Source: Minisyncoccia bacterium (lineage in GTDB: Bacteria > Patescibacteriota > Minisyncoccia > Phycocordibacterales > UBA918). Taken from it: DNA of 51,690 nucleotides. The translations under genes and the position numbers were made by a program. The stretch lies in contig CAXRCZ010000005.1 of the NCBI GenBank assembly GCA_964229335.1, positions 1 through 51,690 on the forward strand, in the 5' to 3' direction. Of the stretch, positions 34,444 through 36,067 are shown in pieces. Below the pieces are notes generated by a model, which did no database searches, had not been told where the DNA came from, and was given only the letters and a program-made list of their open reading frames with translations. How positions within the stretch are numbered: the first letter of the stretch is position 1; every line of letters begins with the position of its first letter.

Positions 34444-34630
34444 AAAAGTAAAATAATTGTAAGTAATGATACGGATGTACCAGTAATTAGAGTAGCTCCA
34501 ATTATATGAGCTGTCTAGCTATGGTACAGTGCTGCCATGAACAAAAAACTGACAGCCGGCGCATTTATCGCCATTCTTATAGCCATATTTGCCGCTATTG
34601 GCATATTTTAGATATGCGATATAGTACTAA

Positions 34631-34815
34631 TGAGCGCTTGAGCGACCATTGCGGCTAGTAGTGTCGGATCAGCATGCCGATGCGAATACCGCGAGTGAGA
34701 TCTCCTCTTGCTTTGCCTGGTGCCAATAGTCCCGGTAAGAGACGCGACCACTTGAACCGGACATTCTGGTACACGGCGGCCGTAACTACAACGGTCCAGT
34801 CGGCCCAAGCGCTCA
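34631..34815 (+). ncRNA. ssrS: Probable 6S RNA
   Basis: 185 nt; closing stem TGAGCGCTTG/CAAGCGCTCA; central bubble GCCG-ATGCGAATACCG-CGAGTG opposite CACTTG-AACCGGACATTCTGGTACA-CGGC, resembling the GCCGAU..AUACC and CUUGAACC elements of enterobacterial 6S; TATAGT upstream and terminator downstream. Confidence 0.7.
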
Positions 34816-34822
34816 CCCCCAC

Positions 34823-34846
34823 CCGCCACCATAGTGGCGGTTTTTT
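34823..34846 (+). terminator. Terminator of the 6S-like RNA
   Basis: ccgccac-cata-gtggcgg-tttttt. Confidence 0.85.
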
Positions 34847-34850
34847 ATAT

Positions 34851-34874
34851 AAAAAGCCACCGCAAGCGGCAGCT
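34851..34874 (-). terminator. Terminator of the minus-strand structured RNA
   Basis: Minus strand agctgccgc-tt-gcggtggct-tttt. Confidence 0.8.
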
Positions 34875-34875
34875 G

Positions 34876-35092
34876 GTGAGAATAAGTGGGTTTAGGCTTG
34901 GAAGCTGTTGCTCCCATGTTCAGATGGACTCTCAAGCCACCCTACTCAAGGCTCTGTCGGTCACCCGGTATACAGTCTCACTCATCACCTAGGGGTGAGT
35001 TCTTGTTTGACTCTCAAGCGCTGGCCTATTCAAAAGAATCGCCGCGGCGGCCGCTAACGACCACCTTTTGGTCTCTTCCCACTCATTCCCAC
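34876..35092 (-). ncRNA. Unidentified structured RNA of about 215 nt
   Basis: 15-bp closing stem GTGGGAATGAGTGGG/CCCACTTATTCTCAC whose mismatches are G-U only on the minus strand; several internal hairpins; own promoter and terminator. Confidence 0.7.
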
Positions 35093-35097
35093 AATTG

Positions 35098-35125
35098 AGT
35101 TTACTCTTTTAAACTTTTACGTCAA
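35098..35125 (-). promoter_or_regulatory. Sigma70 promoter for the 215-nt RNA
   Basis: TTGACG (35125-35120)-16 nt-TAAACT (35103-35098), 5 nt before the closing stem. Confidence 0.6.
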
Positions 35126-35157
35126 TTAGTTTGCCGTCTGAGACAATGCTGGAACTT

Positions 35158-35784
35158 TTATACATCAGGAAACCTATCCAAAAACCGTTCAGCGTGCGTA
35201 TAAGTCTTATGGCCCCATTCAGGAAACAGATTCCCAAACACAATTCGCTCTCCATCTTTTCCTGCGATAAACATAACTCTTTCGAATGGATACTGCGGTA
35301 TAGCTTTTAAAGCTGAATTTATCTGCTCAAATTCATCTTTGGAGATAGATATTTCTCCTCTCATTAATAAAGCTAGGACTCCGCTACCACCTGGAGTATA
35401 TTTTTTTGGAATCTTAGAGGTTAAATACTCTAAAAGATTCGCTACCCCCTTCTTTTTTGTTAAGAAAAACTTTTTTAACTGAAATGCTGAAGCTTTATGC
35501 TTTCCTCTACTCGATAAATCTAAATCTTCCGGAATCAGATAGACATCTATATCATGATCTTCTTCAATTTTGTTCCTGAGGACTTCTACAATGTTTTCAT
35601 CTTTAGTTAAGGACTCTTTAGCAGGAAGTGCTACTTTTAATTTTTCTCCAGTCTCCTTGGTGTGGAACTTAATCAAAATTAGTGCCAAGCCAAGTTCGTA
35701 ATCCTTACTCTTATCAATATTTTTGCTACCAGCAAGATACTTTTCTATCTCAGCAGTTGTTAAAATTAGGTAGTCTCGTCTCAT
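35158..35784 (-). CDS. AT-rich orphan protein, possible PD-(D/E)xK-type nuclease
   Basis: 208 aa, visibly AT-richer than neighbours; E..., DIDVYL..., FQLKK; lies just 3' of the tRNA-Gln remnant. Confidence 0.6.
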   Translation of the reverse strand: MRRDYLILTTAEIEKYLAGSKNIDKSKDYELGLALILIKFHTKETGEKLKVALPAKESLTKDENIVEVLRNKIEEDHDIDVYLIPEDLDLSSRGKHKASAFQLKKFFLTKKKGVANLLEYLTSKIPKKYTPGGSGVLALLMRGEISISKDEFEQINSALKAIPQYPFERVMFIAGKDGERIVFGNLFPEWGHKTYTHAERFLDRFPDV

Positions 35785-35910: not shown

Positions 35911-35996
35911 CCCCAATGTTAAGTGCCAGAAACTTGCATTCCTACTTTCGAGTGAGCGAGCGAAGTAAAAGAAGTATTTAGAATTCACATTCACTG

Positions 35997-36067
35997 CTGC
36001 CGGGCAGGGATTCGAACCCCGGTGACAAGTGCCAGAAACTTGCATCCTACCACTAGATGACCCGGCA
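35997..36067 (-). tRNA. tRNA-Gln(CTG)
   Basis: TGCCGGG/CCCGGCA acceptor stem, CAAGT-TT-CTG-GC-ACTTG anticodon arm, GGTTCGAATCC. Confidence 0.95.

Follow-up and report, generated by a model that had tools for sequence, protein, structure and literature searches.

A 217-nt RNA gene on the minus strand (34876..35092) of a 51,690-nt stretch of Minisyncoccia DNA, here called the window, is by sequence comparison a miniature of the domain I junction of 23S rRNA: helices H12, H14, H16, H21 and H22 and a stub of H13, held in a new closing stem. The evidence comprises descent from 23S domain I, helices that covary among relatives, an intact resident 23S rRNA, a patchy spread, and the cassette position of some copies. 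The gene stands free, and its RNA may be a decoy that binds proteins recognising this ribosome junction, a reading that falls just short of probable. The gene belongs to no described family. An earlier note on this DNA missed the domain I miniature and also that the neighbouring RNA is another rRNA mimic. Below, G numbers denote genomes and L numbers the loci compared, G000 being the window's genome; helix numbers are those that we take to belong to the E. coli 23S positions.

Gene layout and signals

The limits of the gene follow from its fold, its homology and an rRNA-based helix model. A closing stem, P1, joins the two ends (5' arm 35078..35092, 3' arm 34876..34890) and stands in for the rest of 23S; the earlier note had described a 15-bp stem with G-U pairs, and all 15 positions do pair, two of them as G-U. 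The promoter proposed there, a predicted sigma-70-like TTGACG-16-TAAACT (35098..35125, -), is present with its -10 box 5 nt ahead of the stem, but promoter-like sites near the locus occur at chance level (7 versus 5.7 +/- 2.8 in shuffles). A predicted intrinsic terminator, a hairpin with a U-run (34850..34874, -), follows the gene. It lies tail to tail with the terminator of a convergent RNA on the plus strand (34874-34855 against 34823-34840), as had been noted, although that neighbour is not 6S RNA. With these signals the RNA would be transcribed on its own. Its fold has a z score of -4.38, and equal stability was reached in 0 of 200 shuffles. Most of the RNA recurs, letter for letter, in DNA contigs from further samples of the study (record 12, sample X2, 34882-35553; record 30, sample X4, 34865-35083).

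No open reading frame follows the RNA on the minus strand, in agreement with the earlier statement that it is not a 5' leader. Some relatives do have a gene behind them that could favour a cis-acting leader or attenuator, or a piece of a split 23S rRNA: G175 and L200 have an HI0933-family gene next on that strand, G166 has one a gene further along, and in G048 umuC follows. These downstream genes vary among members, however, the window has none on that strand, the terminator does not overlap the closing stem and the resident 23S domain I is complete, so that such a reading is hardly credible. A ribosomal protein leader (r-leader) was rejected in the same way: the RNA imitates an rRNA site, but a comparison with Pfam of 50 out of 99 listed flanking ORFs gave no ribosomal protein gene downstream. 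In G048 (L329) the mimic gene separates a umuD-like from a umuC-like gene, a pair that is normally contiguous.

A miniature of 23S domain I

Aligned to E. coli rrlB, the mimic family corresponds to positions 214-430. Its blocks agree with that stretch in order and spacing: the junction with H12, the word GAUUC, the H13 stub, H14, H16, a variable arm, a tetraloop hairpin, GAGUA (370-374), H21, GAA (400-402), H22, the second strand of H14 and AAA (428-430). The new stem links the two ends, where the remaining 23S would sit. The mimic thus shares with domain I the same blocks, their order, the junction letters and the H14, H21 and H22 pairings. Unlike domain I, it has nothing 5' of 214 (no H11) or 3' of 430, closes on a new stem, carries unrelated arms in place of the H13 tip, H17-19, distal H21 and the H22 loop, has its own promoter-like site and terminator, and is located away from the rRNA operon.

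In the window copy, with all positions on the minus strand, the equivalent of E. coli 214-236 (35036..35079) contains the junction, H12 and the conserved GAUUC. H12 retains its closing pairs (35071-35070/35043-35042) around an inserted 8-bp hairpin (35065-35046). The rRNA-based model places the H13 stub, with 3 of 4 pairs, at 35029..35038. The adjoining stretch (35017..35027) holds the 5' strands of H14 (AGGC, 35027-35024) and H16 (35021-35017). An unconserved variable arm (34968..35016) replaces H17-H19, and a conserved 3-bp tetraloop hairpin (34958..34967) stands at about the position of H20. The 3' strand of H16, GAGUA (34947-34943) and H21 (34942-34922) occupy 34922..34955. The equivalent of E. 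coli 400-430 (34891..34921) consists of GAACA, H22 (34916-34899), the 3' strand of H14 (34897-34894) and AAA.

Homology to 23S was found by several routes. Covariance model R1 was trained on 10 mimic members only, with no rRNA; it spans the 3' 83 positions and would overlook members of the L355 type. Of its 68 matches, 62 loci were read (six low-scoring ones without a locus were left out), and 23S H21-H22 was found in 60 of these 62 classified non-training loci. In a second family, 9 of 12 matches were 23S and the remaining 3 were new mimic members. Because a model trained without rRNA nevertheless retrieves 23S genes, this search is an independent test of 23S descent. Similarly, a scan of 185,579 genomes with the 3' motif gave, among the matches listed, 82 of 120 loci in 23S context. 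The window RNA itself is identical to E. coli 397-430 at 27 of 34 positions (E 0.007), and L201 and L203 keep H12 in nearly unaltered 23S wording.

The rRNA-based helices form almost completely in the window copy (P1 15/15, H14 4/4, H16 4/5, H21 6/6, H22 7/7), and this fold, at -75.3 kcal/mol, lies 8 kcal/mol above the minimum of -83.5. The phage copy L355 folds unconstrained into H12, H13, H14 and H22. These four helices are the core set by the smallest members, as L203 lacks H16-H20 and L355 additionally lacks H21. The RNA would have the same three-dimensional fold as in the 50S subunit.

The interior proposed in the earlier note agrees with the comparative model in part. CGG-GUGA-CCG and GAGC-AACA-GCUU (the latter being H22) belong to both, and the variable arm can accommodate AGUC/GACU together with ACUCA/UGAGU; the remaining four, GACCA/UGGUC, AGCG..GGCC/GGCC..CGCU, AGCC/GGCU and CCAU/AUGG, are incompatible with the model. 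The 11-mer that the note had pointed out does occur twice, at 35019-35009, starting within the 5' strand of H16, and at 34937-34927, and has no third copy anywhere in the genome. It is absent, however, from the 12 relatives checked and from G673, G635 and G726. Its copies lie in different helices (the H16 arm and the H21 tip) and are private to the window copy, and the two similar domains that they were thought to mark are not borne out.

Known RNA families were compared as well. No Rfam 15 covariance model matches the window copy or its relatives, which upholds the earlier exclusion of RNase P, tmRNA, SRP and raiA; only four tRNAs in the window reach the gathering score, with noise at E<=10 around the locus. 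RNase P RNA lies on contig C7 and tmRNA on contig C6, away from the locus. The RNA is conserved, uncatalogued, free-standing and structured, and to that extent the description as a novel noncoding RNA stands; that it acts in trans, we infer. A group I intron was considered for GAGACU/GAGUC words resembling what we take to be the P7 consensus, and rejected as these words are private to the window copy and no Rfam intron model matches. An RNA antitoxin of a type III toxin-antitoxin system was rejected for want of a repeat array and a conserved linked protein.

Members and distribution

The search for relatives suggested in the earlier note brought 16 distinct members to light, the window copy included, with lengths of about 105-270 nt. 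A DNA search of 101 relatives gave two homologs, and a 16-letter motif run over all 165 genomes of the source family gave 10 matches, 7 of them true members. R1 contributed G144, which brings the total to at least 8 of the 165 genomes, all of a single genus. In the second family the gene occurs in 4 of 121 genomes (L083/G611, G673, G635, G726). A metagenome scan yielded five loci: L200, L203 and the identical pair L201 and L202, all of them new, and a copy the same as that of G202. Records with members are titled Parcubacteria, Paceibacterota or Minisyncoccia, and one Saccharibacteria. Among the loci read, R1 found no member in draws of 150 order and 150 phylum genomes.

One IMG/VR phage contig carries a member of about 105 nt (L355, genome label G463), the single member among the 6 loci of that viral scan. 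Other viral scans gave members in 0 of 51 loci and in 0 of 18 that were inspected, and none that was convincing among 21 (best 17.6 bits); the one viral match to H69 was an rRNA operon. A neighbour of L203 matches PHROG, and L203 itself had no match in 50,697 phage records. A plasmid search returned 2 weak Sphingobium matches (E 4e-3). In the viral contig (L359/L379) the 105-nt member is directly upstream of a 447-aa protein that matches PHROG transposase families and looks TnpB-like by eye, with a strong hairpin between the protein gene and the mimic.

No single gene flanks all copies. The suggestion that the RNA might co-occur with the 208-aa ORF of the window (35158-35784, -; without a Pfam family) did not hold, as this ORF lies beside no other copy and was not found with this query in 8 other carriers.

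Conservation and covariation

In an unfitted alignment of 10 sequences, two-sided changes occur in 6 of 14 pairs. A model-fitted alignment of 15 sequences (A5) has them in 8 of 14, with none of 500 shuffles as high and slid controls far lower, these controls ignoring kinship among members and the alignment being fitted to the model. The changes are distributed over H21 (4/5 pairs), H22 (2/6) and the tetraloop hairpin (2/3), the last being missing in L203 and L355. H14 is compensatory in G053 (AGUU/GACU), and H22 covaries in G144, G726 and G635. The closing-stem arms vary in sequence and still pair at 10-14 of 14 positions in 11 of 12 members, L200 having been mis-parsed in this comparison. The H13 base followed by H14 was parsed in 9 of 13 members, the window copy being outside those 9.

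Signals at the new ends recur in the family. A script places a TAnnnT box 2-7 nt ahead of the stem in 7 of 13 members; by eye one is also present in G175 and L200, and before a fused H43-44 module in G040 and L083. A hairpin with a U-run follows 11 of 13 members.

The insertions at H12, H13, H16-H19 and H21 differ strongly in length and sequence among members. Such arms would be expected had the junction been co-opted to hold and protect them, with the arms carrying the real function, much as the tRNA-like cores of Y RNAs act as a comparable scaffold; the invariant letters are also the junction-building ones. No arm sequence is common across members, though, and L203 and L355 are nearly armless. 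In addition, the sister RNAs described below copy functional hot spots (H69, H43-44) rather than merely stable folds. A scaffold role is thus quite unlikely.

Resident 23S rRNA and the foreign type of the mimic

Domain I is complete in the resident 23S of G000, G040 and G053, and G048, G166 and G175 have no assembled 23S for this comparison. An intact resident domain I means that the mimic is not a patch for a missing 23S piece, and a piece of a split 23S, which homology had suggested, was rejected on the same ground.

The mimic is also not of the resident type. The window RNA matches alphaproteobacterial 23S at 56 of 72 positions (E 5e-11), and same-genus 23S in the same alignment panel gave no match. 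The 3' strand of H14 reads GCC in 14 of 16 members (all except G053 and G673), against 0 of 58 parsed 23S loci of the Patescibacteria set. Among the matches listed, the 23S genes with GCC comprise 20 titled loci: 16 Alphaproteobacteria, 2 Magnetococcales, 1 unclassified Pseudomonadota and 1 Eubacteriales, where the class is the one to which we take the genera in the titles to belong. The 82 23S loci behind this comparison were preselected through the family's H22 motif and are hence a biased sample, H14 and the following CAGUG being outside the pattern. Exceptions are a Rickettsiales locus without GCC (L111) and the titled Eubacteriales locus with it (L080). L256, a 23S contig in a same-genus bin, has GCC and is probably misbinned. 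These signatures make an alphaproteobacterial origin of the mimic likely.

Several features of the resident rRNA and of the bins were observed in passing. The resident 23S of the genus has a long insertion in H12 (G000 C10:14483-15192; L195, L197), and in the source family's own 23S the H69 stem has covaried with the loop kept (19 of 22 parsed loci). Short contigs with 23S of a non-Patescibacteria type, probably misbinned, occur in G153 (L256, L212), G035 (L006) and G721 (L426-L434), the last having eight.

The foreign type bears on whether the RNA titrates the cell's own ribosomal proteins in trans, for example bL28 at H21, as a free-standing r-leader. The genome encodes bL28, and the G053 copy lies just behind rplM-rpsI. 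Against this, the copy is closer to foreign than to resident 23S, L355 lacks H21, and H11, presumably part of the bL28 site, is missing in all members. The sister RNAs carry H69, and we know of no resident ribosomal protein on that helix. Such buffering is improbable, even though imitation of rRNA is the known logic of r-leaders (PMC7247131).

Other rRNA-mimic modules

The neighbour on the plus strand (34631..34815) is itself a mimic RNA, with a 13-bp closing stem, a predicted multibranched fold (z -4.0), a promoter-like site (34598-34625) and a terminator (34823-34846). It had been taken for 6S RNA; it has no 6S match, and its conserved parts are a 16S h43 module (34654-34689; 16S 1343-1378) and a 23S H68-H69 module (34714-34797; 23S 1834-1925). 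The former is identical to several 16S genes at 30 of 36 positions and the latter to E. coli 1896-1925 at 28 of 30. RF00013 gave no match in the window or the genome, a test of limited sensitivity, with the control positive in only 5 of 14 genomes. Thirteen bases of the H69 module in this neighbour could pair, across one bulge, with the hairpin that interrupts H12 of the window mimic (35044-35065); this complementarity is missing in relatives and probably due to chance.

Free-standing H69 RNAs recur. An H69 pattern matched 13 of the 165 genomes of the source family: 5 rRNA genes, 1 chance match, 6 free-standing RNAs (window, G102, G018, G046, G151 and G203, four with the h43 module) and 1 copy in a tRNA-like gene. 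The match in G053 is within a coding region. The tRNA-like gene (L328:2283-2454, G004) lies directly behind a 23S gene, and its 94-nt anticodon-loop insertion is a copy of H68-H69, best matched by alphaproteobacterial 23S (65/84). In G018 and G046 (loci L210 and L213) the H69 RNAs lie between tig and clpP, with unexplained 5' hairpins and a 16S h42-like piece visible by eye, a likeness that was below significance in the rRNA alignment.

Across the order, the pattern matched 117 of 301 genomes. Forty-two loci were read, of which 30 came from the search itself and 12 were chosen as second or variant matches; among these, L383, L409, L411, L412, L413, L416 and L417 look like free-standing H69 RNAs and L414 is doubtful. 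H69 lies inside an insertion of a 23S gene in L401 and just ahead of a 5S gene in L419, and L411 additionally holds pieces of the 16S h11 region. A further module, H43-H44 of the GTPase-associated centre, is directly upstream of the domain I mimic in G040, L083 and G726 (loci L317:4170-4270 in G040, L083:2690-2770 and L425), apparently as one transcript; the G040 copy matches 23S at 36 of 39 positions. Judged from these matches, the window gene is one of a set of modular rRNA-mimic RNAs.

The two RNAs of the window are not obligate partners, as the H69 pattern gave no free H69 RNA in the other 7 family carriers. Compensation by H69 RNAs for a resident H69 that has drifted was considered and given up, since G480 has a canonical 23S H69 and a free H69 RNA.

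Cassette position

An att-like repeat ending in sequence like the 3' end of tRNA-Gln (35129..35162, -) divides the 208-aa ORF cassette from the RNA genes, and tRNA-Gln(CTG) (35996..36067, -) is the likely anchor of the cassette array. The genome has 10 sites of this repeat and the reversed control none, and its copy on C7 ends in tRNA-Gln 3' sequence. It flanks the G040 RNA on both sides, lies ahead of the G726 RNA and is found around the G102 H69 RNA, and the G203 H69 RNA is enclosed by the repeat and tRNA-Gln. It was not seen near most other mimic copies. No recombinase gene occurs among the flanking proteins scanned. Other cargo of the arrays is mostly house-cleaning enzymes (NUDIX, Ham1, isochorismatase). 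In the atlas the 208-aa ORF has unnamed clusters as neighbours, and leads scoring below 0.9 point to the nuclease folds of DUF1780 and MunI.

Elsewhere, att-like repeats bound one-gene cassettes behind tRNA-Gln (G000 C7 64276, 64555 and 65172; L317, L320, L322, L323, L327), and G102 has up to 7 in 8 kb. The tRNA genes, RNase P and att sites of G000 C7 (126.7 kb) are mirrored around about 63,360; the contig looks like an inverted duplication, likely an assembly artefact. ARAGORN finds a tRNA-Ile with anticodon TAT, uncommon in bacteria, at G000 C6:9547-9620.

The patchy distribution, the att-bounded cassettes and the alphaproteobacterial signature would all suit a functionless relic, decaying rDNA captured from Alphaproteobacteria and spread by the cassette system. 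Decay is a poor match for whole helices that are cleanly removed, covariation in a closing stem that is not taken from rRNA, compensation in H14, H21 and H22, and a promoter-like site and terminator at the new ends of most members. A relic is accordingly very improbable.

Proposed function

In the favoured reading, the RNA reproduces the junction of helices 12, 13, 14, 21 and 22 inside its new closing stem, and this copy would bind proteins that recognise that part of the ribosome. Under selection the junction-building letters have been kept and the outer arms have drifted (H13 tip, H17-19, distal H21, H22 loop); given this pattern, the partner likely reads the junction itself. As the copy is of the alphaproteobacterial type and not of the cell's own, a foreign partner is more probable than a resident ribosomal protein; it might be an enzyme or toxin adapted to the usual bacterial rRNA, from a host, a competitor or a phage. 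For an accessory copy of a bound surface that has been trimmed and selected, a decoy is the simplest reading. The sister RNAs (H69, H43-44, 16S h43, h11) would be decoys in their turn, for different factors that target the ribosome, and through the cassette arrays at tRNA-Gln, lineages could exchange mimic RNAs.

We are aware of no toxin or other factor directed at the H12/H14/H22 junction, and no attacker of it was found in the literature searched. One copied site does have a precedent: the interbacterial toxin Tre23 modifies H44 (PMC8661411). Three points weigh against a decoy. No protein gene travels with the mimic RNA in the flanks or carrier genomes compared; the conserved letters are equally needed just to fold the junction, so that a scaffold role fits them as well; and the other cassette cargo is house-cleaning enzymes, not defence genes.

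A different partner would be the ribosome itself. The RNA might contact ribosomal particles through RNA-RNA interactions, its H12/H22 surface, which we take to pack against domain V in the 50S subunit, delaying, storing or poisoning 50S assembly in the same cell or a host cell. The smallest members (L355, L203) keep exactly H12, the H13 base, H14 and H22, and sister RNAs carry H69, an intersubunit-bridge helix. However, the H22 loop and distal H21, the makers of the C385-G411 contact and presumably of the contact with H88, vary in every member compared (4 of 16 were left out as unparsed), and presence in just 8 of 165 family genomes is odd for an assembly factor. Such docking is unlikely, although H21 and H22 gain their mature contacts, C385-G411 included, late in assembly (PMC9935924), and Paceibacteria are without Der and uL1 (bioRxiv 10.1101/2024.11.29.625318).

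The decoy reading can be extended from one gene to the whole set. Paceibacteria and some phages may keep a swappable kit of small RNAs made from pieces of foreign rRNA, traded as tRNA-Gln cassettes and used as ribosome look-alikes against host cells, competitors or phages. The kit members would either soak up rRNA-targeting toxins and antisense RNAs as baits or, as effectors, titrate host ribosome factors. This broader proposal is tentative.

Relation to known RNAs and significance

Short RNAs homologous to part of 23S are familiar as fragmented rRNAs and rRNA pseudogenes. The mimic differs from these in being redundant to an intact resident domain, of another type, internally deleted, and under structural selection with new ends. 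Decoy and mimic RNAs are also well known: 6S RNA mimics a promoter, CsrB and RsmZ are protein sponges, bacterial Y RNAs mimic tRNA, and phages use crRNA mimics as anti-CRISPRs. The mode proposed here would be analogous, a stand-alone RNA that copies a natural substrate and titrates its binder. Unlike all of these, the present RNA has no sequence or model match to them and copies rRNA in swappable modules.

Another parallel is the r-leaders that imitate rRNA, such as the L20, S15, S4 and eL15 candidates (PMC7247131). They share with the mimic the imitation of an rRNA site and a narrow distribution, but they act in cis in the 5' UTRs of ribosomal protein operons and usually copy few nucleotides. 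The mimic is instead free-standing, a true descendant of a multi-helix junction, of foreign type and without a fixed downstream gene. Two papers on the ribosomes of the candidate phyla radiation (CPR) report lost proteins, helices and assembly factors, and the parts of them consulted do not mention rRNA-mimic RNAs (PMC9297842; bioRxiv 10.1101/2024.11.29.625318). The full-text literature searched, with most subscription journals outside it, gave no account of stand-alone genes in which an rRNA junction has been copied, trimmed and kept by selection.

Mimicry of rRNA was thus known inside mRNA leaders, and here it takes the form of independent genes. Such genes are easily missed, as they fall below Rfam cut-offs and transcriptome studies would discard them as rRNA. 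Members of 105-135 nt are ribosomal junctions in a naturally minimal form and show which parts of domain I stand alone. If the RNAs are decoys, they would be ready-made baits for ribosome-targeting proteins and a clue to the hosts of these episymbionts. If the kit reading is true, each module would point to a ribosome-targeting factor, and the alphaproteobacterial signature would point to the host.
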